DNA of 64,000 bases from a virus (IMGVR_UViG_3300014208_000025:116967-180966); one strand, 5' to 3'; counted from the first letter of the stretch, positions 14,904 to 48,851 are shown. The notes: generated by a model not told the origin, from the letters alone. Translations and numbers: made by a program.

Positions 14904-15464
14904 ATGATTAGACTCATGGATATCATCAATGAAGATTTGGATATACCGACGCCGGCCCAACATCAACCAGCATCCAATACAATCATCAATTCCGATTTCC
15001 TAAAGTTCGTGATGAATGTGGAAAACGCTGAGTTAAAAGGTCGTGACCCCAAAACTAAAATTTGGCATCCACACTCGTCTCCAGAAGGAGGGTCTGAAAC
15101 GGTTGGATATGGACATAAGTTGAAAAACGGACCAAATGTTCAAAAACATACCAATCTTTCAGACAAAGACGTTGTAAAATTGTTAAGAGATGATTTAGTT
15201 GAAGCAAACAAAAAAGTTCATCAATATGTTGAAAAGGTTTACGGTATCAAAATTTTATTGAACCAAAAACAAGAAGAAATGTTAACCGAATTTGTTTTCA
15301 ATCTTGGTGGATTGGATAAATTTCCAAAATTCACAGAAGCCGTTTTGAAAAATGATATGCCTACAATGAGGAAGGAATACAAAAGATTTTATCGAGGTAA
15401 AGACCAAAAACCTATCGAATTAGAACGACGAAATAAGTTGTTCTATGACCGATTTTTGAAGTGA
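14904..15464 (+). CDS. lysozyme (GH24, T4 e / gp5-lysozyme-like)
   Basis: Glu...Asp...Thr catalytic triad followed by GYGH (NAELKGRDPKT...SETVGYGHKL), as in T4 lysozyme (TIGIGH). ATG at 14904 chosen because the longer listed ORF overlaps the convergent upstream gene. N-terminus MIRLMDIINE fits the leader consensus. Confidence 0.6.
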   Translation: MIRLMDIINEDLDIPTPAQHQPASNTIINSDFLKFVMNVENAELKGRDPKTKIWHPHSSPEGGSETVGYGHKLKNGPNVQKHTNLSDKDVVKLLRDDLVEANKKVHQYVEKVYGIKILLNQKQEEMLTEFVFNLGGLDKFPKFTEAVLKNDMPTMRKEYKRFYRGKDQKPIELERRNKLFYDRFLK

Positions 15465-15487
15465 CATTTTATAGGAAATGTGTTACA

Positions 15488-16930
15488 ATGATGTTTATGA
15501 CTGAAATCAAACAAAGAATCGTAGAAGGAATCAAAGAAAAATCTGCGGAAGACTTTATCCGTCAGACCATTAAAGGTACGGAATGGCAAGGTAAAGTTTT
15601 CGTTGCGGGTGGATATGTCCGAGATGAATTCCTTGGTAAAGACCCCAAAGACCTTGATTTGTTGGTAAACTCCCAAAACGGCGGCATCGAATTCGCCAAT
15701 TGGATTACCAAGAAAATTGGAAAATTCAAAGAAGGATCAAATCCCGTAACTTTTCCAAGGTTTGGCACTGCCAAGTTTAACCTTCTGGGAGTGATCCATA
15801 ATGGAATTGACCTTTCGGACATGGATATTGAGGCCGTAATGCCCCGCAAAGAACAATATACAGCAGGCTCCCGCAAGCCAGATGTATCCCAAGGGGAACT
15901 CAAAGATGACGTGGAACGTCGTGACTTCACTGTAAACAGCCTTTTGAAAGACCTTTCATCGGGTGAAATTCTTGATTTGACAGGCATGGGCAAGGATGAC
16001 ATCAAGGCCGGAATTGTCCGAACTCCGTTGAGTCCCGACAAGATTTTCACCGATGATCCACTCCGTCAGTTGCGAGCCGTTCGTTTCTCAGTCAAATACA
16101 ATTGGAAGTTGCCAATGTTCATGTTGAAGGGGTTGAAACGAAACGCTCCACAACTTAAGAATATTTCCAATGAACGTATCCGTGATGAGCTTGACAAAAT
16201 GTTGATGACGGGTTCCCCCGCCAAAGCTATCAAATTGATGAAAGTAGTCGGATTACTTCCATATGTTATTCCCGAACTCGTTCCAGCAATCAAGATGGTC
16301 CAGAATAAACATCATTCCGAAGATGTTTTTTCTCATACCTTAACAGTATTATCCAAAACTCAACCGGTTTTGATTCAAAGGTTGATGGGTTTGTTTCATG
16401 ATATCGGTAAGACGGTCACAAAATCAGTAACTCCAACAGGGGTACATTTTTATGACCACGAAGACGCGGGTTCAAAAATAGCCGAAAAAGTGATGACTCG
16501 CTTGAAATATCCAACGGAATTGATTGATGCGGTCAAATTGGGTGTGCGTAACCACATGCGTTTGAAATCCGCCAAGGATACCGGCGTGGAATTGTCCGAT
16601 AAGGCACTGCGTAAGTTTAAAATTGAAGTAGGCGACCAATTGGAAAACATTTTGAATGTTATCCATGCAGATAACTGTGCTCATTCAGATGCGTCTGCGA
16701 TGCCTAATCAGATTGCCAACATTCGTAAGCGTCTTGAAACACTGAATATGAATGTGGCCCACGGTAAACCAAAACTTCCCATTACCGGAAACGATTTACA
16801 GGCCATCGGTATCAAGCCCGGCCCAATCTATTCTGAAATTATGAAGTCTGTTACCGAATCGTGGTTTGAAAACCCGGCTATTTCTAAAGAACAGGCATTG
16901 AAAATTGCTAAACAAATTGCCAAAATATGA
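15488..16930 (+). CDS. cca: tRNA nucleotidyltransferase (CCA-adding enzyme), class II head domain plus HD domain
   Basis: GGYVRDEFLGKDPKDLDLLV head motif (G-G-x-V-R-D...D-x-D). HD-type region downstream (HDIGK...HMRLK). The listed ORF starts at a GTG at 15461. The ATG cluster at 15488-15497 is preferred. From 15497 the N-terminus is MTEIKQRIVE (leader-like). Confidence 0.8.
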   Translation: MMFMTEIKQRIVEGIKEKSAEDFIRQTIKGTEWQGKVFVAGGYVRDEFLGKDPKDLDLLVNSQNGGIEFANWITKKIGKFKEGSNPVTFPRFGTAKFNLLGVIHNGIDLSDMDIEAVMPRKEQYTAGSRKPDVSQGELKDDVERRDFTVNSLLKDLSSGEILDLTGMGKDDIKAGIVRTPLSPDKIFTDDPLRQLRAVRFSVKYNWKLPMFMLKGLKRNAPQLKNISNERIRDELDKMLMTGSPAKAIKLMKVVGLLPYVIPELVPAIKMVQNKHHSEDVFSHTLTVLSKTQPVLIQRLMGLFHDIGKTVTKSVTPTGVHFYDHEDAGSKIAEKVMTRLKYPTELIDAVKLGVRNHMRLKSAKDTGVELSDKALRKFKIEVGDQLENILNVIHADNCAHSDASAMPNQIANIRKRLETLNMNVAHGKPKLPITGNDLQAIGIKPGPIYSEIMKSVTESWFENPAISKEQALKIAKQIAKI

Positions 16931-18381
16931 TAAAACTAAAATCATTATTGGTAGAAAAAACTTTGTATCATGGAACGATATCCGATTTTGTTCCAAGTAT
17001 AAAGAAACATGGGCTTTTACCAACTGTCGGCGAATTTGTTAAACATGCGTATGCAGGTTCAGTTGATAATATCGATGCGGAAATTAATGAATACTTGAAG
17101 GATTTGGTGTTTGCGACGGACAAAAAACAATTGGATAAAGCCGTTACCGCAATCACGGCCCAAGTGGGAATCAAACTAAACAAAGATTTCCAAAATGTTA
17201 CGGATGAAGAATTCAAACAATACGGAGCGTTAGCAATCATAAAAGATGGTGATTCCGTAATGAGTCACTACTATCCGAAAGACGATGAAAATTATTATGG
17301 TCAACATCCTTTAACAGTTGAGCCGGGAGATTACTTTTCAGATGAGTATGTTAATGTCGATTACATTTTGACTAAGGACAAATTGATTTCTTTCTTAAGA
17401 CGACTTGGAAGCTGGCCTAGAAAATATGGACCGGATTATAATAAATTTCGTATCGAAGGAAAACTGGCTCCAGAGTCAATACAGGAAATCAAGAAGTATG
17501 ACATAAAGAAACATTACAACATTGATATGCGGCCAAACACCGTCGTTGTTGATTTGGTGAATTCAATTTTGAAGGACATCAAACCGTTGATTTATGAATT
17601 GGGGTTTCGTAATATTAAAATCAACTATGTTACCCACGATACCGAGGCCTTTGCCAGATACAACGGAATTATTGACTCCACCGGCGATCCCATTATTACC
17701 ATGTCCACAAAAATCGTGTATGGTTGGGTAAAGAAATATGGTCACAAGTTAGACCGTGAAATAGAACGAGTAATCGTTCATGAATTGAATCATGCCTATC
17801 TTGAATTGTGTGGATTGGATATCAATAGACAATACAAAGACAGGCAACGAATAGAGCCAATAGTAGAAGACGCTGCTCAAGAATTTGTTGAAGACCGCAA
17901 CGTGCAGAAAGTTAAAGAAACCTTGGATGAGTTCGTTGAAGATTACAGTTTCCATACTGGACACATTGCCGAAACAACGGAATGTCCACGTTGCAATGGT
18001 TGGAAAGTGATTTATGTTCGAGCGGGCATTCCAAATGTTGTTGCCAAATGTCCTGTCTGTGTTGATAAACCCAAGACCATTAAAGTGTATCGTGGGGTAT
18101 CAGAATACAACAAAAAGTATGGCAACTTCTGGACGACTGATAAGGAATGGGCACGCCAGTTTACCCAAGCAGGGTTAGACAAGGAAATCAAACAACGCAC
18201 GATTGATACTTCCGTTATTATGAAACGGGAGAATGTGCCGTTGCCACGAGCCTGTAGTGACAAGGGTTTTGACCAAGCTATAAAGGATGCTGAGTTTGGT
18301 AAATTTGATGCGTTTTGGGTTAATGAAGGTCAAGGCGAACCTCCATCTATTTATGTAATGAACCTTGCGGTGTTAAAATGA
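16927..18381 (+). CDS. multidomain protein: N-terminal PARP/Tpt1-like ADP-ribosyltransferase-fold motifs, HExxH motif, C-terminal CxxC...CxxC zinc ribbon
   Basis: TLYHGTISDFVPSIKKHGLLP closely resembles the KptA/Tpt1 segment FLYHGTASRFLDEILKQGLKP. DLVFATD follows about 37 aa later (compare PARP GIYFAD). Also VIVHELNHAYLEL (HExxH) and CPRCNGW...CPVCVD. Leader MIKLKSLLVE. ATGA overlap with the cca stop. Confidence 0.5.
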   Translation: MIKLKSLLVEKTLYHGTISDFVPSIKKHGLLPTVGEFVKHAYAGSVDNIDAEINEYLKDLVFATDKKQLDKAVTAITAQVGIKLNKDFQNVTDEEFKQYGALAIIKDGDSVMSHYYPKDDENYYGQHPLTVEPGDYFSDEYVNVDYILTKDKLISFLRRLGSWPRKYGPDYNKFRIEGKLAPESIQEIKKYDIKKHYNIDMRPNTVVVDLVNSILKDIKPLIYELGFRNIKINYVTHDTEAFARYNGIIDSTGDPIITMSTKIVYGWVKKYGHKLDREIERVIVHELNHAYLELCGLDINRQYKDRQRIEPIVEDAAQEFVEDRNVQKVKETLDEFVEDYSFHTGHIAETTECPRCNGWKVIYVRAGIPNVVAKCPVCVDKPKTIKVYRGVSEYNKKYGNFWTTDKEWARQFTQAGLDKEIKQRTIDTSVIMKRENVPLPRACSDKGFDQAIKDAEFGKFDAFWVNEGQGEPPSIYVMNLAVLK

Positions 18382-19715
18382 TTAGGTTGCTGAGAATATT
18401 GCTTGAAGGACGAGTTGAGGATTTCAAAAAGAAATACTCCGCGTTACCGCCTGATGTCCAAGCGGAAATCCTAAAAAACGACCCAAGTCCCAACAACAAA
18501 TATTTGGATTGGATGGGCAAGATTGCGTCAATCGAACCAAGTTTGAAGTTAGATACTTTGATTGGTGACGTTGAAGAGTTTGACAAATATCAAGTCATGT
18601 TAGGTGACATCAATCGCTTCAAATCACACAACGATTTGAAACAAGCGTTAATGTCTCGCACCAAAAGCAAGAAACAAACTACCAAGGAAGGTGCTCAAGT
18701 TATCATTGATAATCCCGATTTTTTGGTGGTCGTTCCCAAAACCCAAGACAGTTGTGCTTACTACGGCAACAACACAAAATGGTGCATTGTCAATCAGGAA
18801 TCCTACTGGAACAGTTACTTCTACGAAAACACCATCATCATTCTTTTGGATAGACGCACACATGAAAAGTATGCTATTGTTGGCCGGGCTGACGGCGTTT
18901 TCGTCGTCTATGACCGAAATGACAGTAGAATTGATTACAATTTCTTCATTCGGGATGAAGACGAAGAAGGTGCGTGGCCGGAATACGTTCAAGAAGCAAT
19001 TGAAGAAGCTATGTCAAATGATGACATTGAAGGCCGTAAAGATGAATACATAGGTAAAATGGTGGATACGTTCATTGAAGATAAGGGAGCGGACAAATTG
19101 TGGGAAAACTATTTAGACCGAGTTCATCGGGAATACAAATTGGATGGTGAACCATCAATGGAAGTTTTCAAAAACATCATAAACTCACACGGAATAACCG
19201 ATGAAAAACTTTCCGAATTGTCTGTATCATTATTGTATTACAGCTTACAACAAAACGGAGTCTCTGAGGATGATTTGGGTGAAGTAAATGCCACATCAGA
19301 CATAGACCGTGCGTTAAGAGATATGGGAAAACTGGAAAAAGATGTCGATGGTGGTACGCCTCTTGAATATGCGGTGGGTGATTATGTTCGGTCATTTCGT
19401 GGAGTCGCGGGGCCTCTAGCGGTGATTGAGGATGCGGTTAGTGAACCTATTTTTGACGAGATTTACTATAAGGGAACGATTGATGAAGATTTGTTTGATG
19501 CCATCACCAAATATAACGCAAGATTGAATTCCCCACAACAAATGAGTTTGAAAGGTATGGATAAAGGAAAAGAAACGGTTCATATTAACAACATACAAGA
19601 TGTCATCTATGTTTTCAAGAATACCGGATACGAAGACTGGGCCAATTATTTGTCATCCGTGACCGGTTTAAAAGAAGTGATGAAAACTTATCAACCAAAG
19701 GCTAGACTGTTATGA
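18378..19715 (+). CDS. hypothetical protein with leader-like N-terminus
   Basis: MIRLLRILLE N-terminus. ATGA overlap with the upstream stop. No motif identified in the body. Confidence 0.4.
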   Translation: MIRLLRILLEGRVEDFKKKYSALPPDVQAEILKNDPSPNNKYLDWMGKIASIEPSLKLDTLIGDVEEFDKYQVMLGDINRFKSHNDLKQALMSRTKSKKQTTKEGAQVIIDNPDFLVVVPKTQDSCAYYGNNTKWCIVNQESYWNSYFYENTIIILLDRRTHEKYAIVGRADGVFVVYDRNDSRIDYNFFIRDEDEEGAWPEYVQEAIEEAMSNDDIEGRKDEYIGKMVDTFIEDKGADKLWENYLDRVHREYKLDGEPSMEVFKNIINSHGITDEKLSELSVSLLYYSLQQNGVSEDDLGEVNATSDIDRALRDMGKLEKDVDGGTPLEYAVGDYVRSFRGVAGPLAVIEDAVSEPIFDEIYYKGTIDEDLFDAITKYNARLNSPQQMSLKGMDKGKETVHINNIQDVIYVFKNTGYEDWANYLSSVTGLKEVMKTYQPKARLL

Positions 19716-19816
19716 TTCGTTTAACTCCCATGTTGACCGAAGCCAAGGTCAAGAATCTCTATTGGAATGTGATTCCTCGTCAGATTTGGATAAAGAAACC
19801 TTTAATGAACAGATAA
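19712..19816 (+). CDS. leader-only mini-ORF (34 aa)
   Basis: MIRLTPMLTEAKV... starts in an ATGA overlap with the stop of 18378-19715. Found by hand translation. May be a remnant or a small peptide. Confidence 0.25.
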   Translation: MIRLTPMLTEAKVKNLYWNVIPRQIWIKKPLMNR

Positions 19817-19838
19817 AAAAGTATATTTATGTACCAAT

Positions 19839-20375
19839 ATGATAAATTTAAGTAAAATTCTAAGAGAGGACAGGTCTGAAACTACAGATCGGGGATGTTT
19901 GATGGCAATGGTTCTTGAACCCCAACGTACTGCTATTTTGAACTTTGGTAACAAACTAATTCGTGAAGAGGACTTGTATATCGTAGATGATGAATTCGGT
20001 CGTGAAAAAGAAACCCACGTCACCATTCTCTATGGTTTTGTACCTGATTTGTCTAAAAGCCAAGTCGTTCAAATCATCCGAGACGTGAAACCATTTACCA
20101 TCACTTTAACCGGCGTGGACACATTCAAAAACGAGAAAGAGGGGTTTGATGTAGTGAAGTTTTCCATTGAAAGTCCGATTCTAAGACAACTTAACGCAGA
20201 CGCTCAAAAGTTTCCCAATCAAAATGACTTTCCGAATTATTCGCCTCATATGACGATTGCGTATGTCAAACCAAATACATTCAAAGAAACTCGTAAAGGT
20301 CTAAAAATTGAAATTCCAATTAGTCAAATTTGTTACTCGTCTTCCCAACATCAAAAAATGTATGTCAATCTATGA
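19839..20375 (+). CDS. 2H phosphoesterase (LigT / cyclic phosphodiesterase / Acb1-like fold)
   Basis: Two H-x-T-x motifs with typical spacing: ETHVTILYGF and SPHMTIAYVK. Leader-like MINLSKILRE. Confidence 0.6.
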   Translation: MINLSKILREDRSETTDRGCLMAMVLEPQRTAILNFGNKLIREEDLYIVDDEFGREKETHVTILYGFVPDLSKSQVVQIIRDVKPFTITLTGVDTFKNEKEGFDVVKFSIESPILRQLNADAQKFPNQNDFPNYSPHMTIAYVKPNTFKETRKGLKIEIPISQICYSSSQHQKMYVNL

Positions 20376-20962
20376 TTAAGCTCAAAGAAGTATTAGAAGA
20401 TTTAGGAAATACATTTCAGATGTATCATGGAGGAAAACGTTGGTCACGCCTTCCTACAGAATTGTTAGGAAATTCTCAAGGTCGTTATGAGGCCGGTGTA
20501 GGAATATATTTCACCAATGACTACAATACTGCCCGTCGTTACGCTAAAGGGTCTAGGGTTGTTCATCGTGTTGAAATTGACAAAAACTTCAAAGAAATTG
20601 AAAATGTTAAACTTCCATTAATAGAAGTCGTTGATTTTGTAAAGAATCTTAACGGTCTAAAACGAAGATCGGAAATTATTGATTCATTAAAAAATAATGC
20701 ATCTCGCATGAATACAGATTTTGTATCAGCAAATATTCTTAATAATTTAATTGTGAACTATGAAGCTGGGGCAGGCAAGGTAGGCATTAAAATATCAAAC
20801 TATCTCGTAAGTAAAGGTGTAGATGCCAAATTTGAATCCCAAAGCGGAGACGAGTTTTGGTTAATTGTGTTTAACCCAAACATCATAAAAAAAGTAGATG
20901 TTGTTAACCCTGCTACAGTAAACAGTGATTTCGCATTTACCCTTCCCAATCCATTCCTATGA
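20372..20962 (+). CDS. PARP-like (H-Y-E class) ADP-ribosyltransferase-fold protein
   Basis: QMYHGGKRW followed 28 aa later by GIYFTNDY (compare PARP HGS ... GIYFAD). Leader MIKLKEVLED. ATGA overlap with the stop of the 2H gene. Confidence 0.5.
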   Translation: MIKLKEVLEDLGNTFQMYHGGKRWSRLPTELLGNSQGRYEAGVGIYFTNDYNTARRYAKGSRVVHRVEIDKNFKEIENVKLPLIEVVDFVKNLNGLKRRSEIIDSLKNNASRMNTDFVSANILNNLIVNYEAGAGKVGIKISNYLVSKGVDAKFESQSGDEFWLIVFNPNIIKKVDVVNPATVNSDFAFTLPNPFL

Positions 20963-21036
20963 TTAAACTCAAGAGTCTCATATCAGAATATGTTTATGAT
21001 AACGTGGATTTTGTTATCATAAGATCATATTTATAG
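20959..21036 (+). CDS. leader-only mini-ORF (25 aa)
   Basis: MIKLKSLISEYVYDNVDFVIIRSYL* starts in an ATGA overlap with the stop of 20372-20962. Stop TAG at 21034-21036. Confidence 0.25.
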   Translation: MIKLKSLISEYVYDNVDFVIIRSYL

Positions 21037-21043
21037 ACACAAC

Positions 21044-22006
21044 ATGAAACTCAAGACCATTCTTTTACTCGGTGAATCTTCCGGCTTCGGCATCGCCGGC
21101 GGTCCTTTGGGTGGTTCATTGACTTCTCATGATACTAAACTACGAGCCTATCCTAATAGTATGGATGACGTTGAAGGTTGGAATGGAATTGTTGAGGGTG
21201 ATGGTTGGTTTGTACATAGGGAATCAAATAATTGGGATACTAAACTTTCCGGAGCAAGCGTGTATATCACCGAGGGAGAACCACACAAGTATTGGATGCG
21301 TATCAAAACCCACGGCTTACGCAAGCCAAACGACACGAATGAATCCTACCGCCAACGTATCAATAAACACTCAGACAAGGTTGCCCGAGCATGGATGACT
21401 GCTGCGAAGAAACTCCACAACAATCCCGAAATCAACGAAGTCGGTAACGAGATTCAGATGACGTGGAAAGAAGCTTTCAAGTTAGCATTGGAGAGTGCCA
21501 AGGTCAAACCCTTCATCGCTGAATATGGAGAACGTCAGATAAATCCGACAAAACGTGCCTTAGACCGTGTAAGTCCGCCTATATCAGACCCTATTAATTT
21601 TACCCCAAGATTGGAAGAACAAGCGAATCCTCAAATTGGTTGGTCTGCCGTCGTGTTGGATGAACAATCCAAGAATCGTTTATTGACTGAATTCGGCTCC
21701 AAAATACCTGATGGGTTCGAAAAGATTGCTCATCACATGACGATTACAATGGGCGGATTACCACCCGAGAAGAAGGGTGACGTTGGTAAAACGGTGACTC
21801 TATTGGCCACTCACATAGGAATTTCTGAAAAGGCCATTGCGGTTAAAGTTTCAGGCTATTTCACAACCAATAAAAATCCACACGTTACTTTAGCCATTGA
21901 TAGAAATGGTGGGGCCAATCCAGTTGATTCCAATAAAATCACTAATTGGGAAACGTTGCCGCAACCAATTTCTCTATCGGGGAAAGTAACTGAGTATTCT
22001 CGTTAA
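21044..22006 (+). CDS. two-domain protein with C-terminal 2H phosphoesterase domain
   Basis: AHHMTITMGG and NPHVTLAID (two H-x-T-x motifs) in the C-terminal ~120 aa. Leader-like MKLKTILLLGE. Confidence 0.5.
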   Translation: MKLKTILLLGESSGFGIAGGPLGGSLTSHDTKLRAYPNSMDDVEGWNGIVEGDGWFVHRESNNWDTKLSGASVYITEGEPHKYWMRIKTHGLRKPNDTNESYRQRINKHSDKVARAWMTAAKKLHNNPEINEVGNEIQMTWKEAFKLALESAKVKPFIAEYGERQINPTKRALDRVSPPISDPINFTPRLEEQANPQIGWSAVVLDEQSKNRLLTEFGSKIPDGFEKIAHHMTITMGGLPPEKKGDVGKTVTLLATHIGISEKAIAVKVSGYFTTNKNPHVTLAIDRNGGANPVDSNKITNWETLPQPISLSGKVTEYSR

Positions 22007-24269: not shown

Positions 24270-24566
24270 CTATCCATGTATGAGCAAAAATATTTCCGTA
24301 AATCCAATTGACTTGTAAAATTCGATCAAATCTTTCTTTTCTAATTTTTTGCCGGGCATATTAGCTAGTGGTTGAGCATGTAACCAACAATGTTTAGGTA
24401 AAAATCGAGCTAATTTTTTGGCAAACCCTTTACCTCTATATTTTGGATAGACTACAAAAGATTCCACTTTAGGGATTCCCCCAAAAAGATTAGACGGGGC
24501 AACATCAAAATAACCGTAAAATTTTTTAATTTCGGATTCTAAGATAAGATGCTTTAATTTAATCAT
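24270..24566 (-). CDS. mini GNAT-like protein (acetyltransferase motifs A and B only) with MIKLK leader
   Basis: VVYPKYRGKGFAKKLARFL (GNAT motif A Q/RxxGxG/A) and IEFYKSIGF (motif B). Leader MIKLKHLILE. ATGA overlap with the upstream gene. Confidence 0.35.
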   Translation of the reverse strand: MIKLKHLILESEIKKFYGYFDVAPSNLFGGIPKVESFVVYPKYRGKGFAKKLARFLPKHCWLHAQPLANMPGKKLEKKDLIEFYKSIGFTEIFLLIHG

Positions 24567-24856
24567 ACTTTTCCAAGACGTTTTTTAACATCTGACAATT
24601 TGTATCGTCCTCTAGGAAATTTAAACAATTCTTCTGACGTGGGCATCTCATACCCCATTTTATTCATATGTTCTGGATTACTAGAAAAATGATTTTGTCC
24701 ACTAGAAATGTCATCTATTTGAACGTAATTAAACTGTGGAAACGATTCGTCTTTTTGTATTGTGACCATTAATACATCATCATTCAAATATGGTAAACGT
24801 CGTTTAACTTCGGAGTCTTTTATTGTTCCTTCAATGAGATGTTTAAGCTTAATCAT
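24563..24856 (-). CDS. hypothetical protein with MIKLK leader (possible N-terminal half of a split GNAT)
   Basis: MIKLKHLIEG leader. Directly precedes and overlaps the mini-GNAT ORF. Confidence 0.3.
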   Translation of the reverse strand: MIKLKHLIEGTIKDSEVKRRLPYLNDDVLMVTIQKDESFPQFNYVQIDDISSGQNHFSSNPEHMNKMGYEMPTSEELFKFPRGRYKLSDVKKRLGKV

Positions 24857-25769: not shown

Positions 25770-27551
25770 TTATACAGTGTCCAAGTCTGCGACGAGGATT
25801 TTCCCGTAAAACTCGGGCCGCACGATCTTCTTCGCGTAACGGGTCATTACACCGCGTCTTGGGGTGAAATTCACTGGATCATACACCAAAGGTGTTTGAA
25901 CGAGTGGGATGTATGGAGCATAGACAGCTCCCGTTTCGAGGAAGTTATTTCCACGGAAGCCCAACAGAATGACGTTATCCGTCATATATGGGTTCTTATA
26001 GACTTGGAAGCGACTTGCGAAGCTACCAACACGGCTTACGCCCATGGCATACTTGGCTTGATCGCCATCTGTGTTCACAACGAATCCCGGAATGGATTCT
26101 AAAATCGTTGATACGTCTGGGGAGACGACCATGAAGTTAGCACCACCACGGAGGGTCAATTGGTGAATCTTGTTGGATACCTTTTGAATCTTGTTACCAA
26201 GAGTCTGATACCATGTTGCCTTGGTGTAATAGCCACCTGTTCCAGCAACCGTTTGGGTCACGACGTTGTAACCACCTGAGCCGTTAGGCACGATTTCGGT
26301 GTTGAGCTTGGCGCTCCAACGTTCCGTTGTTAATGCTGGGGCATTGGTAATCAACATGTCGAGAATTTCGAGGTCAATTTCCATTGAAACATATTCAGAC
26401 AACAGGGCCGTCAATTCGGCTTCTGCATCAATACTATGATAAGCATTCAAGTCTTGAGCGAGTTCTGGAGTCCAGACTGCCTTCAACTTACGAGTCTTAG
26501 CGACGATTGGTTCGCTTTTGAGTTCCAAGTTTACTTCTGGAATACCAATATCTTTGTTAAGACCGGTATCAGGAGCGTTGGTTGACTTACCTGTTGGATT
26601 GAAGAACGAGACACCACTGTTTCCAGTGTTATCTTCGAAGTCACCACGGTTACTATCCGTTGGTTGAACGGAGTAGATAACAGAACCAGTCAAGGAGCCG
26701 GTTGGTTGAACTGGAGCGGAACCAGAAGCTACGAAAGTTACTTCGCCGGCCGTGGTCAATTTGGTGAATGCTGGGTAATATTCACACACACCACCAACAT
26801 TCAATTCACCTGCTGCGCCGCCTGGTGTTACCGGCATAAATGAACGAACTGCGTTCGCGTCAAATACGTTACCATTAACCAACGACATGGCTCGGAAATT
26901 GTTTGTGGTAATGGCAAACAATTGACCGGCGGCCCATGATGCTGAAATGGAATTCAACAATTTGTCAGCGGAACCAGAACGTGCAGCCTGCACATAATAG
27001 TTGGTCAACCAATTAATGTCTTCCTGAGTAGCGGCTACGCTAGTAAAGGAACACGTTACGATTTTGTCGTTGGCAGTATAGCCATACTTACCAACGCCAT
27101 ACAGACCACCGATTGGCTTATCTGTTGAACCTGATTTGACGCCTGTTCCACCGAATAGTGATGAATAGTTACCGGTTGCATCAGCTGGACGACCACCTTG
27201 GGCTGAACCATACTTGAAATCCAAGTAAAATACGAGGCCCGATGGTAGATTCATTGGCTGGACGGAGACGAACTCCTTGGCAGCAAATTCTGCGAATACA
27301 CGCCGAACGAGTGGGAGAGCTACGCCTGCCCATTGTTCGGAGTTTGCGGAAGTACCAGTAGCAGTAGCTTCTTCAATTAGCTGTTTAGCTTGATTTTCGA
27401 GCAACACTGACATGTTGGACTTCTCGATATCACTTTTGATACCTTCGAGCAAGCCGGTCTTATCCCACTTGGTCACTAGACCACGGGTTTCCGTCATCAA
27501 GCGAGCTTGAGGATTCATTGTGTTTGTTAACAACGATTTAATGTTTTCCAT
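25770..27551 (-). CDS. major capsid protein (T4 gp23-like)
   Basis: QPMNLPSGLVFYLDFKY (T4 QPMNSPTGQVF). RKLKAVWTPELAQDLNAYHSIDAEAEL (T4 RQLKAAYSIELAQDLRAVHGMDADAEL). C-terminal YAPYIPL...TRY. N-terminal propeptide-like segment with LLEG / VLLEN. Confidence 0.9.
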   Translation of the reverse strand: MENIKSLLTNTMNPQARLMTETRGLVTKWDKTGLLEGIKSDIEKSNMSVLLENQAKQLIEEATATGTSANSEQWAGVALPLVRRVFAEFAAKEFVSVQPMNLPSGLVFYLDFKYGSAQGGRPADATGNYSSLFGGTGVKSGSTDKPIGGLYGVGKYGYTANDKIVTCSFTSVAATQEDINWLTNYYVQAARSGSADKLLNSISASWAAGQLFAITTNNFRAMSLVNGNVFDANAVRSFMPVTPGGAAGELNVGGVCEYYPAFTKLTTAGEVTFVASGSAPVQPTGSLTGSVIYSVQPTDSNRGDFEDNTGNSGVSFFNPTGKSTNAPDTGLNKDIGIPEVNLELKSEPIVAKTRKLKAVWTPELAQDLNAYHSIDAEAELTALLSEYVSMEIDLEILDMLITNAPALTTERWSAKLNTEIVPNGSGGYNVVTQTVAGTGGYYTKATWYQTLGNKIQKVSNKIHQLTLRGGANFMVVSPDVSTILESIPGFVVNTDGDQAKYAMGVSRVGSFASRFQVYKNPYMTDNVILLGFRGNNFLETGAVYAPYIPLVQTPLVYDPVNFTPRRGVMTRYAKKIVRPEFYGKILVADLDTV

Positions 27552-27588: not shown

Positions 27589-29052
27589 TTACTTCTTCGG
27601 TGCGTTTGGGATTCCAGCGAGTTTCTTGAATCTATCCGCCATCGCGTTACTCTCAGTAATAATCTGAGCAGGTTTCGTAGATGCTACTGTCTTAGATGCG
27701 AGTCCTTCGGTAATCTGAGTAACACTTCTCTTAATCAATGGCTTGGTAGCCACTGGCTTTGAGTTGATACTCTTACCAAAATTTAGCGACTCCGCCAACA
27801 AGGCGTAGGCCAATTTCACTTCACGAACGCTCTTGGTCAGGTCAAATGATTCAACGATTTTCATTCTGTATGAATCGTCAAGAACCCCTGCGAACTCCTT
27901 AAACAACTTGTTCGTGTAAAGCAGTTTGGCGTTGAGCAGATTAACCTCATTAATTTGTCCACGGAGGAAACGGATAGCGTCGTAAGATTCCTTGAGGGCA
28001 GTCTTATACTTGGCTACTTCTGAAAGGCCGCCGACAGAGCCGGCGCCAATGTTTCCTTTACCGGAAATATTGTGATTCTTACCCGTAAGTTGTTTCTTAC
28101 TGGCATCTTGTGGTGCGGCTGGATAACCCTTGACTCCGCCTGATTTGTCCTGGCCGTCAACGTTCTTTGGAACGCCGTTTTCAACAGCTTCATCGACTTT
28201 TTCTTCCTTGTCGTCGTCATCCTTCTCACCTTTTTCGCCCTTCTTTGCGAGCCACGGCGGTAGTTTTCCTTCCTTGACGGATTCTTCTTCCTCTTCAGCC
28301 TCTTCATTTAATGAAGCAAGCAATTCTTCGAGGTTGATTTCTTCATCGCCTTCGGTTGGGGGAACTTCACCAACTGGCTCGGTTCCGTCCAATGCTGGGT
28401 CAAGTGGGGCTGGTGCGGCACTCGGAACTGTTCCGGCTGCACATGCTGGGTCACAAACTGGTGCTGGAGCCGGTGCGGCTCCCATTTCATCACCATCAGG
28501 CTCACCGACCGGTGCGGCAGGTGGTAATTGAGCGGCTGGATCGCCTTCAACAGGAGGCAATTCTGCAGCAGGTTGAGGTTCACCCTCTTCTTCGCCCGAT
28601 ACTTCTTGTTCCAGTTCCTTGATGATTTCATCCAAATCTTCAGATGTTAAACCGGCTTCGGCAACAACTTCTTCTTGTTCCTCAGTTTCGGTTACTATAC
28701 TCTGTTTTGCAGCTGGGGCTTTTGAGCCGGCAGCTCCTTCCGAACCTCCGACTGCAATGGTTTTAAAATCTTTCTTTGCAGATGAACCTTTATGTGGTTC
28801 CCCTTTGGAAACGGCTTTTGTCGTTGGTCCTTTGGCTTCTCCACCCTTACCGGATACTTGGTTAGGAGCTTCTACTTCGGATACCATTTCTTCTTGTTCT
28901 TCTTCAGAATCCTCTTTCAACTTCTCGGCAAACATTGCTTCAAAACGAGGAGCGAAGGCTTCTTCAAGCGATGCTTTGGCATTGGCGAGAGCAGTAGCTC
29001 TTACTGCCTTTGCGTCGGCGATGGCTTCTTTTAGCAATTCACTGTTAATCAT
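27589..29052 (-). CDS. prohead scaffold/core protein (gp22-like, acidic, low complexity)
   Basis: Immediately upstream of the gp23-like gene. Highly acidic, A/E/P/G-rich, predicted helical N- and C-termini. Confidence 0.5.
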   Translation of the reverse strand: MINSELLKEAIADAKAVRATALANAKASLEEAFAPRFEAMFAEKLKEDSEEEQEEMVSEVEAPNQVSGKGGEAKGPTTKAVSKGEPHKGSSAKKDFKTIAVGGSEGAAGSKAPAAKQSIVTETEEQEEVVAEAGLTSEDLDEIIKELEQEVSGEEEGEPQPAAELPPVEGDPAAQLPPAAPVGEPDGDEMGAAPAPAPVCDPACAAGTVPSAAPAPLDPALDGTEPVGEVPPTEGDEEINLEELLASLNEEAEEEEESVKEGKLPPWLAKKGEKGEKDDDDKEEKVDEAVENGVPKNVDGQDKSGGVKGYPAAPQDASKKQLTGKNHNISGKGNIGAGSVGGLSEVAKYKTALKESYDAIRFLRGQINEVNLLNAKLLYTNKLFKEFAGVLDDSYRMKIVESFDLTKSVREVKLAYALLAESLNFGKSINSKPVATKPLIKRSVTQITEGLASKTVASTKPAQIITESNAMADRFKKLAGIPNAPKK

Positions 29053-29240: not shown

Positions 29241-29951
29241 ATGCCCGCAAAATCTAAAAAGCAACAACGGTTTTTTGGACTCGTAAGAGCCATTCAAAAA
29301 GGTGATAAATCCGCTAGCACTGCTTCACCCGCAGCTCGTAAAGTAGCGGGTTCTATTAGTGCTAAGGATGCTGGCGACTTCGCCAAATCCGTGGCGGAAC
29401 TCAAAATCAAGAAGGCCGTATTGGAAATCTTGAAAGACGCTCGTGAACCCATGTATCTTGAGGAACAAGAAACCAATCCGGTTGCCAAGACATTCACCAT
29501 CAAGGATGATTTTGAACGTTACGCAAAACGTTATGTAGGGCAACCATTCTCTCCCAAAGAACTCGAAGCCCTTGATACTTTTCAAGAAACCAAACCAACC
29601 AAAATTGACCGCATTGAAATTCGATATGAAACTACCGACGAGTTTCAAAACACAACTTCCACAATTCTGAAAAAAATGAAGGATAGTGGTCAGTTCTGTT
29701 TTACCGCTTTCACCAAACACACTAAAATTGAGTCCGAAGAAGAACCTGAGACGAGTGATGAACCAACCGGCGAACCGGTAATGGGTGGCAACGAACCGGC
29801 TCCGGGAAGCCTTTCGATGAAGGAACAACAAGATCCGGCTCCAATGGATGAACCAAAGGATGATATCATTGTAACCAAATCAACATTGTTTAATGATGAC
29901 ATAAAGGGTGCTGCGGTTCTTGCGGAATTTTTAAAAAAACTCGACCTATGA
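29241..29951 (+). CDS. hypothetical protein, basic N-terminus, acidic C-terminus
   Basis: ORF. Divergent from the scaffold gene. Confidence 0.4.
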   Translation: MPAKSKKQQRFFGLVRAIQKGDKSASTASPAARKVAGSISAKDAGDFAKSVAELKIKKAVLEILKDAREPMYLEEQETNPVAKTFTIKDDFERYAKRYVGQPFSPKELEALDTFQETKPTKIDRIEIRYETTDEFQNTTSTILKKMKDSGQFCFTAFTKHTKIESEEEPETSDEPTGEPVMGGNEPAPGSLSMKEQQDPAPMDEPKDDIIVTKSTLFNDDIKGAAVLAEFLKKLDL

Positions 29952-30250
29952 TAAAATTGAAGGAAATACTTCATCGCCTCCACGCTGAGAACGAACAAGG
30001 TCTAACTGAAGTTGATAGTTGGAAAATCACGGATGCCGACTATTTGACAGACATGGGGTTTACCATTGATGGTATGTATCATTTCGGGTTGAAGAAACCT
30101 GAGATAAAGATTGCTCACAAAAAGGGTCAGGGCTTCATCGTTGAAGACATGACCAAAAACAGAAAACAAGTTTTTCCCAAGTTTACCGAACTGATGGAAT
30201 ACTTTTCAAAGTATCAACAACGTTGGGAACGGGAACCATATTCAGAATGA
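29948..30250 (+). CDS. hypothetical protein with MIKLK leader
   Basis: MIKLKEILHR. ATGA overlap with the upstream stop. Confidence 0.35.
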   Translation: MIKLKEILHRLHAENEQGLTEVDSWKITDADYLTDMGFTIDGMYHFGLKKPEIKIAHKKGQGFIVEDMTKNRKQVFPKFTELMEYFSKYQQRWEREPYSE

Positions 30251-38587: not shown

Positions 38588-39397
38588 TTAAGAACCTTTG
38601 ACCATAATAGGCGAGACGTAGGCAGTAATATCATATCGGTCGAGGGGTTGTTCTACTGACCCAGCTCCGTGTGCGGTGATTTGACCGGTCAGCACAGCCG
38701 GTTTACCGTTTTTGTTGGTGAACGGAATAGAAATTTGCCATTCCTTGAATTTAGGCATCCCATTCGAACTATCCGACTGTCCTCCATATTTGGTACTTGT
38801 AATGGAAACCTCCAATCCCAATCCCTGCAACTTATTGAAAATCTTGTGTATTGCTTCCCAACTATTATCAGAAAACAATCCTTTTGAAAGTGACGACAAA
38901 ACTTTGTTGACTCGTCCAGCTGCAACCACATTGGATTGTCCGTTAATCAAATGTTGGTCGCCAACGTCAGTTTCTCTTATCGTTGATTCTCGTTCAAGAG
39001 TTACAATTTCATATCCCTGTCGAAGATATTTGGAAACGTTTTCAGGCTTTAGTTGAATTCTACCTCCGGTATCTTTGTTGTCAATCCAGTAAACATCTTG
39101 TCCACTTTGGCGGTCTTTGAAAATAATATCATCATTTTCAGATTCATCTATACCACTAAATTCTTTTACCCCCATTGAATCATAATATGCTTGTGGGTCA
39201 AACTTTCCATTCTTACATCCGGGAACATCACACGAAACTGTGTGAGTGTCATCTACGCCACTGTTGCTTCTTCCACCCAAGTCCTTTAGTTTTGTCGTGT
39301 AATGTCCCTGACCCTTACATTTTTGACAATCACCTTTAGTTGTTAAGGCTTCACGCAAAATGGCTTTAACCAAAATTTTGAGTTGGGTTTCTTTCAT
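38588..39397 (-). CDS. hypothetical protein with leader-like N-terminus and Cys cluster (candidate capsid internal protein)
   Basis: MKETQLKILVKAILRE. CQKCKGQGH. Immediately downstream of the prohead protease gene. Confidence 0.35.
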   Translation of the reverse strand: MKETQLKILVKAILREALTTKGDCQKCKGQGHYTTKLKDLGGRSNSGVDDTHTVSCDVPGCKNGKFDPQAYYDSMGVKEFSGIDESENDDIIFKDRQSGQDVYWIDNKDTGGRIQLKPENVSKYLRQGYEIVTLERESTIRETDVGDQHLINGQSNVVAAGRVNKVLSSLSKGLFSDNSWEAIHKIFNKLQGLGLEVSITSTKYGGQSDSSNGMPKFKEWQISIPFTNKNGKPAVLTGQITAHGAGSVEQPLDRYDITAYVSPIMVKGS

Positions 39398-39402: not shown

Positions 39403-40020
39403 TTACTTCCCAATTTCAGTAAGAATGTCACGAACAATGGATTCGGCATGCTCCCACTTATTCGTAACCGGGTTCTTTATCATACCTTCATTGATGTTGC
39501 CACTTGGAAACATGAAAGCTCCACGAGTAGATGGATTAGAAACGAAGTCGAAAGCAATCAATTCAAAGTCATCTTGAACAATGTCGGCTTGCTCACGCAT
39601 ATCCTTTTGTACCGTGCCCATACCACGACTGGAAATACCAAGCCGGATATTGGCTCGGAACAATTCTTTGAGAATGTTACCGTTAGGAGTAGGCAACACT
39701 TCAATCGAACCAATCAAGTTATCACCTTCCCAATGGACTTCAAGAACGTTATGTGAAACGTTTTGAAGATTGACCACCGAAGATTCTGGGTGGTCAAGTT
39801 CGCCTAATGCACGTCGTTCTTTTACAAAGTTTTCAGTATATTTTGAGGCTTCACGTAGCAAAACGTTTTTAGTATAAACCCGTCCGTTTTGGTTCTTAAC
39901 ACCGGAACGTTGAAGAATACCCTTTACTACCAATCGGCGATTTGGGTCGTCATTAGTATTTTCAAAGAGATTATCTTTTACATAATCAAACGCAATACAA
40001 TCTACCAACAATTGTTTCAT
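39403..40020 (-). CDS. prohead core protease (T4 gp21 / peptidase S77-like)
   Basis: GELDHPESS and LGISSRGMG (candidate catalytic His/Ser, as remembered for gp21). Size 205 aa. Position between internal-protein-like genes and downstream of the portal. Confidence 0.55.
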   Translation of the reverse strand: MKQLLVDCIAFDYVKDNLFENTNDDPNRRLVVKGILQRSGVKNQNGRVYTKNVLLREASKYTENFVKERRALGELDHPESSVVNLQNVSHNVLEVHWEGDNLIGSIEVLPTPNGNILKELFRANIRLGISSRGMGTVQKDMREQADIVQDDFELIAFDFVSNPSTRGAFMFPSGNINEGMIKNPVTNKWEHAESIVRDILTEIGK

Positions 40021-41129
40021 ATATCCAATCCTCCATTCAATTCAAAATTGAATATGTAAGTCCTACCCGCTGGTTGAATATTAACATATCCATGACTAAA
40101 TGGTTCACCGGGGCCACCTGAACGTCGTTCTTCGGTTTTAACAAATAGTTCAAATTCTTTCGGATCAAAATCCTTTCCCAAAATATCAATCGGAATTCGT
40201 AATCGATATTGATTGCTATACATACCATCGTGGTCATGACCCGATGAACGTGCCCGTGTAACAAACGGTCTTACATCAAAACGATTGTTATTTGTAAATT
40301 CAGAAAACAGGCGACCAAGAGCTTGTTGAGCATCATCTTTACTCAACAAAATTTTGCCCACGTTTTCATCACCCTCTCCAGCCGTTTCTTCGGCAACGGG
40401 TGCGGGAGCTACCACCTTCTTCTTTTTCTTCAATGGTAAAGGTGGTTGTTCTGGTTTAGCTGGTTGAGTTGGAGCTGTTGGCTGGCCTTGTGGAGCTTGT
40501 GGTTCAGGCTTGACCGTGGGTTCAGGAGCCGGTGCTTCTGGTGCTGCTGGTTCTTCAGCAGGGGCTTCCGGTTTTGGAGTTGGGGCTGGTGGTTCCGGTG
40601 CTTTCGGCGGTTCATTTGGAGCCTCTTGACCCGCCTCAGGTTCTTCCGCACCCGGTTCAACGGCTTGACCGCCAGTTTCAATCTTGATATTGATACCCGG
40701 CGTTAGGAAAAACTTCTTGTCATTTTCATCACTAACAATGACTACCCAATCCTTATACCAAAATTCAACACTAACCTTCTTAACGTTATCAATGGTATAA
40801 TCCGTCTTTGGTTGTCCATAACCGCGTGATGCGTTAGCCACAACTTTCTTACCCAACATCATCTTGTTCATTTTGTCCAACAACTTTTTCTTCGCTGCAG
40901 ATTCAGCCTTGTTCTTCGTATCTTCAAAGGCACGAAAATCCCGTGTGAAATCGTATTCGGATGGGTCTTCGGGAGTAGGTGCGGTATCTGGTCTTGCCGC
41001 CGAAATTGGCTCTTGAGGAGTTGGCGACGATGTGGGGGCGCCTTGAGCAGGCACAGGAGCCGAAACAGGTGTTCCCGGAGGCTGCGGAGCTTGTTCAGTT
41101 ACGTTTAATAGTTCTTTCAGTTTTATCAT
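40017..41129 (-). CDS. MIKLK-leader protein with long Pro/Ala/Glu-rich linker (candidate prohead core/internal protein)
   Basis: MIKLKELLNVTE. PEPPAPTPKPEAPAEEPAAPEAPAPEP low-complexity region. Confidence 0.4.
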   Translation of the reverse strand: MIKLKELLNVTEQAPQPPGTPVSAPVPAQGAPTSSPTPQEPISAARPDTAPTPEDPSEYDFTRDFRAFEDTKNKAESAAKKKLLDKMNKMMLGKKVVANASRGYGQPKTDYTIDNVKKVSVEFWYKDWVVIVSDENDKKFFLTPGINIKIETGGQAVEPGAEEPEAGQEAPNEPPKAPEPPAPTPKPEAPAEEPAAPEAPAPEPTVKPEPQAPQGQPTAPTQPAKPEQPPLPLKKKKKVVAPAPVAEETAGEGDENVGKILLSKDDAQQALGRLFSEFTNNNRFDVRPFVTRARSSGHDHDGMYSNQYRLRIPIDILGKDFDPKEFELFVKTEERRSGGPGEPFSHGYVNIQPAGRTYIFNFELNGGLDI

Positions 41130-41193: not shown

Positions 41194-42123
41194 TCATACT
41201 CTCGGAGAATCTCCAACAACTTTGTATCCCATTTTCTTAGTAATATCTGTTGCTCTTTTGCTGCCGTTTTTATTCTTGGTAAAAGCAAATGGCGTCGAGT
41301 AACCAGCAACTCCACCTGTGGATGACATTTCATCCAATTCAGATTTCGATTGCAAACGTGCAGGAACTATTTGAAAATTCCTAACAAACCAACCTCTTCC
41401 ATCTTTATCTCCAATCCACCCTCTTTTTCCATCCCACTGACTAAGTGTAAAAATTTCCTTATTATTACCTGCATATTGCGGTGTTAATTTGACTTTATCT
41501 CCATTTTTAAAATTGAAAGATTCTTCGTCATTTTCGTCATTTTCCTTAATATTTCCTTTCAATTTCTGAATAGCTTGGTCAGAATAACCCTTGCTCTTCA
41601 AAAATGAACGGGCTTCTTCCTTGTTCATTCCACCCATGACATTCGCTCCGGCATCAGCCATCTTGAGGGTTTGTAGAGCGATTCTCAATTGGTGTTTTTC
41701 TGGAACACTCAAATTCCTGACGCCTTCCAAATTGACGGCTTTCATGTTATTGGTGATACCATCTTTGAAATCGGAAGAATCCTCTTTCTTGATGGGATTC
41801 TTGGAAATCTTTGGAATCAATGCTTTGACCACGGCCAAATCCTTGGCATACTTTGGATTACGAGCAAGCAACTTCTCACCTTTATTCAAACATTGTAGCA
41901 CAAAATCACGACCGAAAAATCCTACCGTCTTGTCATCGGGCATCGGGTGGCCACCCTTGGAAAATGTGTTGATTGCCATTCGCATCATCTTCAACTCATC
42001 AGGAGAATACTTGATGCCTAAATCATCCAAATACACTGTGCCCGGAACTTTTTCTTCCGCAATACTCGATTGCCATTCCTTGATGACATTTTTGACCAAG
42101 GTTTTAAGTTGTGACAGTTTCAT
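41194..42123 (-). CDS. leader-bearing hypothetical protein (candidate internal protein)
   Basis: MKLSQLKTLVKNVIKE N-terminus. Confidence 0.35.
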   Translation of the reverse strand: MKLSQLKTLVKNVIKEWQSSIAEEKVPGTVYLDDLGIKYSPDELKMMRMAINTFSKGGHPMPDDKTVGFFGRDFVLQCLNKGEKLLARNPKYAKDLAVVKALIPKISKNPIKKEDSSDFKDGITNNMKAVNLEGVRNLSVPEKHQLRIALQTLKMADAGANVMGGMNKEEARSFLKSKGYSDQAIQKLKGNIKENDENDEESFNFKNGDKVKLTPQYAGNNKEIFTLSQWDGKRGWIGDKDGRGWFVRNFQIVPARLQSKSELDEMSSTGGVAGYSTPFAFTKNKNGSKRATDITKKMGYKVVGDSPRV

Positions 42124-47914: not shown

Positions 47915-48851
47915 GTGACCACAAACCTCTCGCTACTGTTGATGGTTTGAATTTTCGCCAACGATTTTGGTGTTGGCTATGGATATAAATCGAACGGATA
48001 TGTCCGGGTAGAATTCTTCCACGATAACCAAATTTTCCAGCTTCTTTTGACAGACCCATCGGCTTCATTGGAGACGCACCAACCTTTTTTGGAGGATTGG
48101 GATTGTCATAAAATCGTGGTTGTGTAGAATGAGCATCCGCGTCATAATCAGGAATGACCTTGGCCGAGTCGGGTATTTTAAATTCTATGACAACGGGATA
48201 TGCTTCCGGTTTCTTCTTGTAACCATCATAAGTTGATTTGGTAAAATCAACGGTAGAATGTAACGCATAAAATTCGGCATCATCAAAAGTAGCGGCAAAG
48301 AAAGAATCGATTTCATGATAAATTTCCCGATGGGTAAAATTGCCCTCCGTTTCGCCCGCCGAAATACCTCTTTTTAGAATGTCTTTTAGGTTGACAGTAT
48401 TTGTCCCATGAAACCCAATTTTTGGTACATCACCAATGTTTTTTCTAGCCCCATAAGTTATGTCATCGTCACCGGCGTCGGGGGATGCTCTCGTGATTTT
48501 TTTTATGCCTAGTTGACGGATGATTTTGGATAACATGACCGAGGAAACCGGATTACTTTTATCTCCGCCTTGAACATACAACGATTTATCAACTGGGTCA
48601 TACTGACCGGCCATTACATCGGGCGGCATATCAGCTGCGTAGGAAATCAACTCATAAACATCTTCCGCATTGAAACCATAATTCGTATCAAACGCTGGAT
48701 GGTCTTCGAGCCAATGGACTACAGTAGATATGTCACTGTTATCATCCAAGACAAATAGCTTATCCCGCCAAGCAATAAAAAACTTGGCGGCTTTACCCTT
48801 GGACAAGTCGGTGACTCGTAGTTCTTTAAGCAGTGGCTTTAGGTGTATCAT
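47871..48851 (-). CDS. ADP-ribosyltransferase-fold (Tpt1/PARP-like) protein with leader, overlapping the terL start
   Basis: IGFHGTNTVNLKDILKRGI (compare KptA LYHGTASRFLDEILKQGL). SFFAATFDD follows 34 aa later (PARP GIYFAD). Leader MIHLKPLLKE. Confidence 0.45.
   Translation of the reverse strand: MIHLKPLLKELRVTDLSKGKAAKFFIAWRDKLFVLDDNSDISTVVHWLEDHPAFDTNYGFNAEDVYELISYAADMPPDVMAGQYDPVDKSLYVQGGDKSNPVSSVMLSKIIRQLGIKKITRASPDAGDDDITYGARKNIGDVPKIGFHGTNTVNLKDILKRGISAGETEGNFTHREIYHEIDSFFAATFDDAEFYALHSTVDFTKSTYDGYKKKPEAYPVVIEFKIPDSAKVIPDYDADAHSTQPRFYDNPNPPKKVGASPMKPMGLSKEAGKFGYRGRILPGHIRSIYIHSQHQNRWRKFKPSTVARGLWSLGSEWYDRMGVGKY

Follow-up and report, generated by a model that had tools for sequence, protein, structure and literature searches.

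A predicted capsid-targeting propeptide recurs on otherwise unrelated proteins of a T4-like giant phage

In phage T4, the capsid-targeting sequences (CTS) of the internal proteins (IP) I-III and the propeptides of Alt and gp24 comprise about ten residues at the extreme N-terminus of unrelated proteins and end in L/I-x-E. The prohead protease gp21 cuts after this motif; in IPIII, the ten-residue CTS is enough to bring about packaging, and positions 4 and 7 matter for targeting, positions 8 and 10 for processing (PMC9026906). Here, we analyzed a 64,000-nucleotide stretch of viral DNA (IMGVR_UViG_3300014208_000025:116967-180966; hereafter, the window, meaning the whole stretch), in which a decapeptide leader with the consensus M-I-K-L-K-x-[LI]-[LI]-x-E (MIKLKxLLxE) recurs at the start of 12 genes. 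We consider it likely that this leader is a T4-style capsid-targeting propeptide of a T4-like lineage of phages that branches deeply, removed by a prohead protease of family S77 and expanded to a dozen or more cargo proteins within 64 kb. As in the T4 system, a short leader of about ten residues occupies the extreme N-terminus of otherwise unrelated proteins and ends in L/I-x-E; genes for an S77 protease and a gp23-like capsid protein are present, along with one for a candidate scaffold protein; an ADP-ribosyltransferase (ART) fold is found among the cargo, like Alt; the cargo set varies between related phages; and the consensus is close to the gp24 propeptide MAKINELLRE. Unlike in T4, the consensus departs from the IP-type sequence MKTYQEFIAE, there are 12-13 carriers in 64 kb against about ten head proteins that undergo processing in the whole of T4, most of the cargo consists of enzymes or multidomain proteins, and the tag, known here from sequence alone, is conserved throughout a broad uncultured lineage, some genomes of which exceed 350 kb.

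Three other described systems share some of these features. The giant phages phiKZ, 201phi2-1 and SPN3US likewise have large genomes, many head-internal proteins and a gp21-related protease that recognizes a short x-E motif and cleaves behind its Glu (PMC5694885); however, their motif is A/S/G-x-E, their propeptides mostly span 80-130 residues and they share no decapeptide, whereas here a short and uniform tag of T4 character occurs together with a capsid protein of the gp23 type. Polyvalent proteins (Iyer et al. 2017, PMC5512222) combine ART, GNAT and metallopeptidase-like domains, are predicted to be injected, and are shuffled in the same manner as one of the cargo families described below; however, they are usually linked to MuF or portal-type modules, and no shared N-terminal decapeptide has been described for them, whereas most cargo proteins here consist of one or two domains, and every one has a tag of its own. 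Encapsulin cargo-loading peptides also are short and transferable and bring diverse enzymes into a shell of the HK97 fold, but these usually sit at the C-terminus, make direct contact with the shell and are retained, and neither a scaffold, nor a protease, nor DNA is involved. The CTS principle of T4 and the rich ejection proteomes of giant phages (PMC5694885) are already known; a description of a MIKLK-type tag was not found in the literature searched. An earlier, sequence-only reading of this DNA had held the injected set to be larger than that of T4; the comparison is fair, but about 50 head proteins are already known for giant phages of the SPN3US type (PMC5694885).

A simple greedy caller of open reading frames (ORFs) yielded 74 genes in the window, 12 of which begin with M-I-[KRHN]-L. 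The same start was observed at 2 of the 2361 other ATG codons on both strands, one of the two being a 25-residue mini-ORF at 20959, and at none of the 332 internal methionines of the window proteins. The fuller motif M-I-[KRHN]-L...[LIVM]-x-E describes the 12 genes and this mini-ORF. The recurrence of the leader is real and far above chance. A position-specific scoring matrix (PSSM), trained solely on the leaders of other phages and then applied to the window, gave the 12 leaders scores of 5.8 to 23.3, compared to -6.8 for the next N-terminus in the window and 4.3 for the best of 338 peptides starting at internal methionines; the matrix splits the 12 leaders cleanly from the rest. The sequence-only reading had listed 17 N-termini as copies of one leader. 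All 17 are encoded where it had placed them, and they can be represented as follows: (i) 13 canonical leaders, i.e., the 12 genes and the mini-ORF at 20959; (ii) the variant MKLKTILLLGE at 21044, which is one residue shorter and is common in the ART family, as well; (iii) MTEIKQRIVE of the CCA-adding enzyme at 15497, with a PSSM score of -11.8 and a weak candidate at most; and (iv) the N-termini at 39397 and 42123, which follow a different, longer pattern, MK.SQLK.LVK..IKE, recurrent in the head modules of relatives. The last three groups do not belong to the canonical leader.

The ending of the leader corresponds to the cleavage motif of the T4 protease; in T4, Asp in place of the Glu prevents processing yet leaves targeting intact. 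Among 163 leaders collected under a relaxed definition, 143 have L, I, M or V in position 8 and E in position 10, and in most of the remaining 20 the [LI]-x-E motif is shifted by one residue toward the N-terminus or lies within the first 14 residues; the proposed (L/I/V)-x-E ending also holds for the leaders of the window, with the exception of the gene at 29948. The protease and the capsid protein that the sequence-only reading had named are both encoded on the minus strand: a prohead serine protease of the T4 gp21 family (39403..40020; Pfam Peptidase_S77, 1.5e-25), which is 32% identical to gp21 over 146 residues and keeps the GELDHP and SSRG motifs of the catalytic His and Ser, and a gp23-like major capsid protein (25770..27551; Pfam Gp23, 7e-72). 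Capsid proteins of the lineage keep the motif AKQL[IL]xE|[AS], which aligns with the T4 cleavage sites FLTE65|A66 of gp23 and MAKINELLRE|S of gp24, an agreement that is one of motif conservation only; in the window, the capsid protein has AKQLIEE|A at the site homologous to that of gp23. When the leader PSSM was applied to 72 T4 genes from three regions, the gp24 propeptide was the sole hit, with a score of 6.6; there was no hit among 52 cyanophage genes of a 40-kb head region. The gp24 hit and the L-x-E site of the capsid protein together show the tag to be similar both to a propeptide known to be cut by gp21 and to the maturation site of the capsid protein itself. Directly upstream of the capsid gene lies an acidic, Ala/Pro/Glu-rich, low-complexity protein with the N-terminus MINSELLKEAIADAKAV (27589..29052, minus strand), an arrangement that is kept in relatives; from its position and composition, it is a probable scaffold protein.

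The leader is restricted to one viral lineage. By capsid protein and protease, the closest isolates (about 50% identity) are Microcystis phage Mel-JY01 and Flavobacterium phage immuto; further matches come from two uncultured huge phages and, more distantly, from Rhodothermus phage RM378, and megablast of 24 kb against phage genomes gave no match. A JGI contig of 351,839 bp encodes proteins identical to those of the window, and the source is therefore a giant phage. Leader-type N-termini were found five times in Mel-JY01, and one clear case was found in immuto. For a wider scan, the leader was back-translated into a degenerate DNA pattern, which was run on IMG/VR and on 185,579 bacterial and archaeal genomes. 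The viral contigs contain at least 158 matches in at least 120 loci, at least 148 of them at real ORF starts, and at least 27 loci have 2-5 copies; for the cellular genomes, 120 matches in 120 loci included 19 start-like ones and no locus with 2-5 copies. The cellular matches are at chance level, which rules out a signal of the host type. Among the viral loci listed, which were retrieved by the leader alone, at least about 30 carry this protease (50-63% identity), and many also encode the terminase, portal, scaffold and capsid proteins that go with it. Leader genes in such head modules typically lie between the protease and scaffold genes.

Comparison of homologs shows that the leader behaves as a detachable unit. 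Close homologs of the window lysozyme begin with MIKL[IA]DI[IV]KE and a Pro/Ala/Gln linker, and distant homologs begin at the catalytic domain. In the ART family (64 homologs), the domain begins with TFQMYHGG; most members have the leader followed by a linker of 3-10 residues, and some have no leader. Absence of the tag from whole phages does not explain these leaderless homologs: both contigs examined also have tagged genes. The modules of the three-module protein at 16927 occur in other phages alone, reordered, or in fusions whose partners are lysozyme, GNAT, ART, Tpt1, CCA-adding or NUDIX domains; in all these arrangements, the module that comes first usually bears the leader, with one leader per polypeptide, and a few homologs begin at the YHGT domain. 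In AlphaFold2 models of the ART-fold protein at 20372 and of the first module of 16927, residues 1-10 form a short, low-confidence helix outside the fold. The tag is a conserved, domain-independent peptide at the extreme N-terminus, specific to this lineage.

The sequence-only reading had headed its list of carriers with the interval 14904-22006; leader genes reach well beyond it. The first gene of the cargo operon, with a TATTTAT motif 5 nt upstream, encodes a GH24 lysozyme (14904..15464, plus strand; Pfam Phage_lysozyme, 2e-11), in which the leader MIRLMDIINE (PSSM 12.8) is followed by a Pro/Ala/Gln linker. The public JGI call of this gene (P0001, 182 residues) starts at Met5, with the leader cut off, and automatic start calls may conceal the tag in further records. 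Next on the plus strand is the CCA-adding/poly(A) polymerase-type nucleotidyltransferase with an HD domain (15497..16930; Pfam PolyA_pol, 2.8e-19, PolyA_pol_RNAbd and HD); in relatives, the CCA enzyme sits fused behind a canonical leader (L058; P0097). The following 484-residue protein (16927..18381, plus strand; leader MIKLKSLLVE, PSSM 23.3) comprises an ART-fold 'YHGT' domain, a zincin-like HExxH motif (VHELNHAY) with a Zn ribbon, and a C-terminal domain. The model of its first module has a predicted local distance difference test (pLDDT) score of 77.6, and all top Foldseek matches are ART folds (DarT, KptA/Tpt1, PARP10/15), each weak (E>=0.017) but mutually consistent. The approximately 160-residue 'EKTLYHGT...VEPGDYY' domain of this protein (also P0080-P0111), which is shuffled among fusions, is not covered by any Pfam model. 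The next gene encodes a 445-residue protein without an assigned function (18378..19715, plus strand; leader MIRLLRILLE, PSSM 6.1), which matches PHROG 17056 and 28193, both of unknown function, and shows a weak PcfJ-like hint (E=0.014) when Pfam is run on split fragments.

The remainder of the operon, also on the plus strand, includes a 34-residue mini-ORF (19712..19816; leader MIRLTPMLTE and a short tail, PSSM 8.6), an Acb1-like 2H phosphoesterase (19839..20375; leader MINLSKILRE, PSSM 5.8; Pfam 2_5_RNA_ligase2, 2.8e-12, and Acb1, 2e-08, both above the cut-offs) with TATTTAT 8 nt upstream, an ART-fold protein of the ART-PolyVal family (20372..20962; leader MIKLKEVLE; Pfam ART-PolyVal, 1.2e-05, below the cut-off), a 25-residue mini-ORF with the canonical leader MIKLKSLISE (20959..21036), and a 320-residue protein with the variant leader (21044..22006; PHROG 36523, unknown function) with TATTTAT 9 nt upstream, a homolog of which in L119 begins with MMIKLKPLLNE. 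The model of 20372 has a pLDDT of 91.6 (mean of 48 for residues 1-10), with the domain starting near residue 14, and among its top Foldseek matches, none of them strong (E >= 1.8e-3), are diphtheria toxin, tankyrase, Tpt1/KptA and 6kyf, an entry labelled 'anti-CRISPR protein'. Several 2H phosphoesterases had been expected among the carriers, of which a single clear one, 19839, was found; the expected ART-fold proteins are two, 16927 and 20372, identified by the weak Foldseek matches and, for 20372, by the sub-threshold Pfam hit. For 16927, 18378 and 20372, phmmer against PDB gave nothing useful, and Pfam on split fragments gave sub-threshold hints only (Tpt1, BSP, PcfJ, tRNA-ligase CPD). Each of the two mini-ORFs consists of the leader and a tail of 15-24 residues and lies just 5' of another leader gene. 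They are possibly remnants of cargo-gene replacement; no homology was found past the leader, and no link to known cargo genes.

Outside the operon, leaders are found on a 97-residue protein (24563..24856, minus strand; MIKLKHLIE, PSSM 15.4) with TATTTAT 6 nt upstream, a small GNAT acetyltransferase (24270..24566, minus strand; MIKLKHLILE, PSSM 23.2; Pfam Acetyltransf_7, 1.2e-07), a 100-residue protein (29948..30250, plus strand; MIKLKEILHR, PSSM 15.1), a 370-residue protein next to the protease (p370; 40017..41129, minus strand; PSSM 17.6), in which the leader MIKLKELLNVTE is followed by a long Pro-rich linker, a 326-residue protein adjoining the large terminase gene (47871..48851, minus strand; MIHLKPLLKE, PSSM 13.4; PHROG 11974), a homolog of which in L099 begins with MIKLKPLIQE, and a 167-residue protein (52506..53009, plus strand; MIKLKTIVKE, PSSM 18.5). 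The cargo of the window therefore includes a lysozyme, two ART-fold proteins, an Acb1-like 2H phosphoesterase, a GNAT protein, a multidomain protein with HExxH, and several proteins without an assigned function. Among 146 leader-bearing proteins of relatives, Pfam identified Zeta toxin/AAA_33 kinases, ART, RNase T, cell-wall hydrolases, HD, Mom, CCA-adding enzyme, NUDIX, NT5C and SprT. Polyvalent proteins, which are predicted to be injected with phage DNA, typically contain ART, GNAT and metallopeptidase domains, and T4 Alt is the classic packaged ART (PMC5512222). Two or more disparate domains in a phage with a portal/terminase, the definition of a polyvalent protein, are found in 16927 and its homologs, and most other cargos of the window have a single domain. 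The match between these cargo types and known or predicted injected proteins supports the capsid-targeting reading.

The motif TATTTAT, counted on the strand of the gene, stands within 0-45 nt upstream of 17 gene starts, compared to about one expected; these 17, out of 42 occurrences in all, have a spacing of 4-30 nt (for example, at 14889-14895, 19824-19830 and 21028-21034). Tail, adaptor and head genes are among those preceded by it, and so are the cargo genes 14904, 18378, 19839, 21044 and 24856. This placement suggests that structural and cargo genes may be co-expressed, and the short spacing suggests near-leaderless mRNAs and a lineage-specific, possibly late promoter.

The capsid-targeting reading is well supported in silico by the cleavage motif, the S77 protease, the capsid site, detachability, lineage restriction and the context of head genes. 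By analogy with T4, the tagged proteins would be made late in infection together with the head proteins; the tag would bind the prohead scaffolding core; the gp21-family (S77) protease would cleave the [LI]-x-E site behind its Glu and so release the mature protein within the head; and the cargo would then leave with the DNA into the next host. We infer core binding, cleavage, presence in the virion and ejection from the computational evidence, and ejection into the next host is less certain than the propeptide reading.

Several observations weigh against this interpretation. The leader at 29948 has no Glu in position 9 or 10, and the next site resembling L/I-x-E is HAE at 12-14. The IPII sequence MKTYQEFIAE, to which the sequence-only reading had likened the leader, has a PSSM score of -11.1, so this likeness was not borne out, and the leader resembles the gp24 propeptide instead. 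The scaffold-like protein has no significant BLASTP match to T4 gp22 and no hit with hidden Markov models, and the promoter-like TATTTAT motif is a correlation at the level of sequence. Tagged families such as NUDIX, NT5C, Mom and CCA have more the character of common cytoplasmic enzymes than of classic ejected proteins, and about a dozen cargos in 64 kb of a genome of approximately 352 kb imply either that the head is very crowded or that each protein is present in very few copies. In the close relative L254, a leader-gene operon includes an ART that itself has no leader. Finally, neither virion proteomics nor N-terminal sequencing was found in the literature for this phage or for its isolated relatives Mel-JY01 and immuto.

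Another explanation, which we consider unlikely, is that targeting to the prohead core and cleavage of the tag do take place, but that the carriers are assembly or core components, degraded or expelled like T4 gp22, gp67 and gp68, rather than delivered effectors. The position of leader genes between protease and scaffold in many relatives is consistent with such a role, some carriers are small and have no enzyme domain, and the core proteins of T4 are gp21 substrates, as well. Moreover, the p190 family, a conserved head-module protein, is tagged: the leader stands at its start in most relatives, although not in the window copy (30857-31429, plus strand). The p370 protein is itself a candidate prohead core protein because its gene is immediately upstream of the protease; however, its sequence has no L/I-x-E site besides that of the leader, unlike a scaffold that is chopped to pieces. 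In addition, enzymes without a plausible role in assembly (lysozyme, ART, 2H phosphoesterase, GNAT and Zeta toxin-like kinases) bear the tag, and the cargo turns over fast between phages, as do the internal proteins of T-even phages; both features favor delivered cargo over core components.

It is quite improbable that the tag serves targeting or regulation without any relation to the capsid, e.g., as a degradation tag, as a signal for the membrane or another compartment, or as a handle for a phage chaperone. The models depict the tag as a short basic, hydrophobic helix, compatible with such functions, cytoplasmic-type enzymes are among the carriers, and the capsid association of the tag is something that we infer here. 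Nevertheless, this explanation does not account for the [LI]-x-E ending, the likeness to the gp24 propeptide and the capsid cleavage site, the clustering beside the protease, or the restriction to a lineage with this protease; nor is there a sign of another compartment system in the window.

The repeat could also be a feature of the mRNA, i.e., an initiation region or the site of a translational regulator at the start codon, favored in a host without Shine-Dalgarno sites. Indeed, no Shine-Dalgarno sequences were found upstream of window genes, the first codons are AU-rich, the distance from TATTTAT to ATG is very short, and in 128 leaders of related contigs positions 4 and 5 tilt somewhat toward A-ending codons. 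However, the wobble positions are free: all six Leu codons are used for Leu4 of the window leaders, and in the same 128 leaders the synonymous codons of positions 2, 3 and 10 (Ile, Lys and Glu) follow the background. This codon analysis rules out a DNA repeat as the cause and confirms the proposal that conservation acts on the peptide. Conservation further reaches the hydrophobic positions 7 and 8 and Glu10, most genes of the same phage lack the motif, and in bacterial genomes it occurs no more often than expected by chance. An mRNA-level origin is therefore very unlikely.

Leftovers of duplication or recombination among paralogs, for which three Mel-JY01 paralogs sharing MIKLKSLLxEIISDRVWH and the two remnant-like mini-ORFs could be cited, are a barely credible source of the shared N-termini: all-vs-all BLASTP of the window carriers gave no pair matching at E<1e-3, in agreement with the earlier statement that they are unrelated and ruling out paralogy as the cause, the mean column identity outside the tag is 5% (146 carriers), and the folds of the carriers differ.

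A broader version of the capsid-targeting reading can be advanced only tentatively: MIKLKxLLxE may be a portable address tag of a large, mostly uncultured T4-like lineage, including phages of >350 kb, that pre-loads dozens of enzymes for delivery with the DNA, among them ADP-ribosyltransferases, an anti-CBASS-like phosphoesterase (CBASS, cyclic-oligonucleotide-based anti-phage signaling system), RNA-repair-type enzymes, kinases, nucleases and wall hydrolases. If this is the case, a ten-residue motif would serve as a sequence-only predictor of the proteins that a lineage of uncultured phages brings into the cell, at the moment when host defenses act. The tag alone would then predict the injected effector proteome of hundreds of environmental phages, flagging hundreds of candidate first-strike effectors or counter-defense enzymes (ARTs, the Acb1-like phosphoesterase, kinases and nucleases). 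The cargo set would be the largest and most enzyme-rich known to be driven by a CTS, the CTS principle of T4 would be ancient and enormously scalable, and a second, naturally validated tag would be available for loading foreign proteins into phage heads. The tag also corrects gene starts, as in the JGI lysozyme call.

The second type of N-terminus belongs to two minus-strand genes: a head-module protein between portal and protease (41194..42123; MKLSQLKTLVKNVIKE), with similar N-termini in the head modules of relatives, and the protein just downstream of the protease (38588..39397; MKETQLKILVKAILRE). A helical sequence of about 16 residues, MK(I/L)S(Q/K)xLKExV(K/R)xxIKEE, is found on protease-adjacent proteins in many relatives (L044, L109, L023, L015 and L103), and it may represent a second class of core-association sequence. 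In L254, at least four tandem paralogs starting with MKLSTLLEQQGILVPRRSPEERRK (15153-20069) lie beside the leader-gene operon and the capsid gene.

Other structural genes of the window, all on the minus strand, are the large terminase (46262-47899), the head-tail adaptor (13622-14833) and a gp20-like portal protein (43064..46099; Pfam Portal_T4, 5e-67; PHROG 213). Genes without a leader include, also on the minus strand, a NADAR protein (35177-35677), a RlaP-family protein (33040-34212), a GMP reductase inserted among head genes (37173-38156) and an SbcC/SbcD-like fused ORF of 1068 residues (53032-56238); no tRNAs were found in the window. The portal gene is interrupted by an intein (Intein_splicing, 1.3e-11, over residues 106-441) that bears HNH and NUMOD3 endonuclease motifs and has the junctions DYD|C...IISN|T; the portals of relatives have about 600 residues and align to residues 23-106 and 443-1011 of the window portal. 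A NUMOD3 homing-endonuclease-like ORF (30247-30867; paralog at 51801-52484) lies between the 29948 leader ORF and p190 on the plus strand, and it may have split or displaced the original start of p190. Further GIY-YIG/NUMOD3 homing-endonuclease-like genes are scattered at 24876-25640 (minus), 36343-37176 (plus) and 3409-4269 (minus); together with the portal intein, these genes indicate a heavy load of selfish elements.

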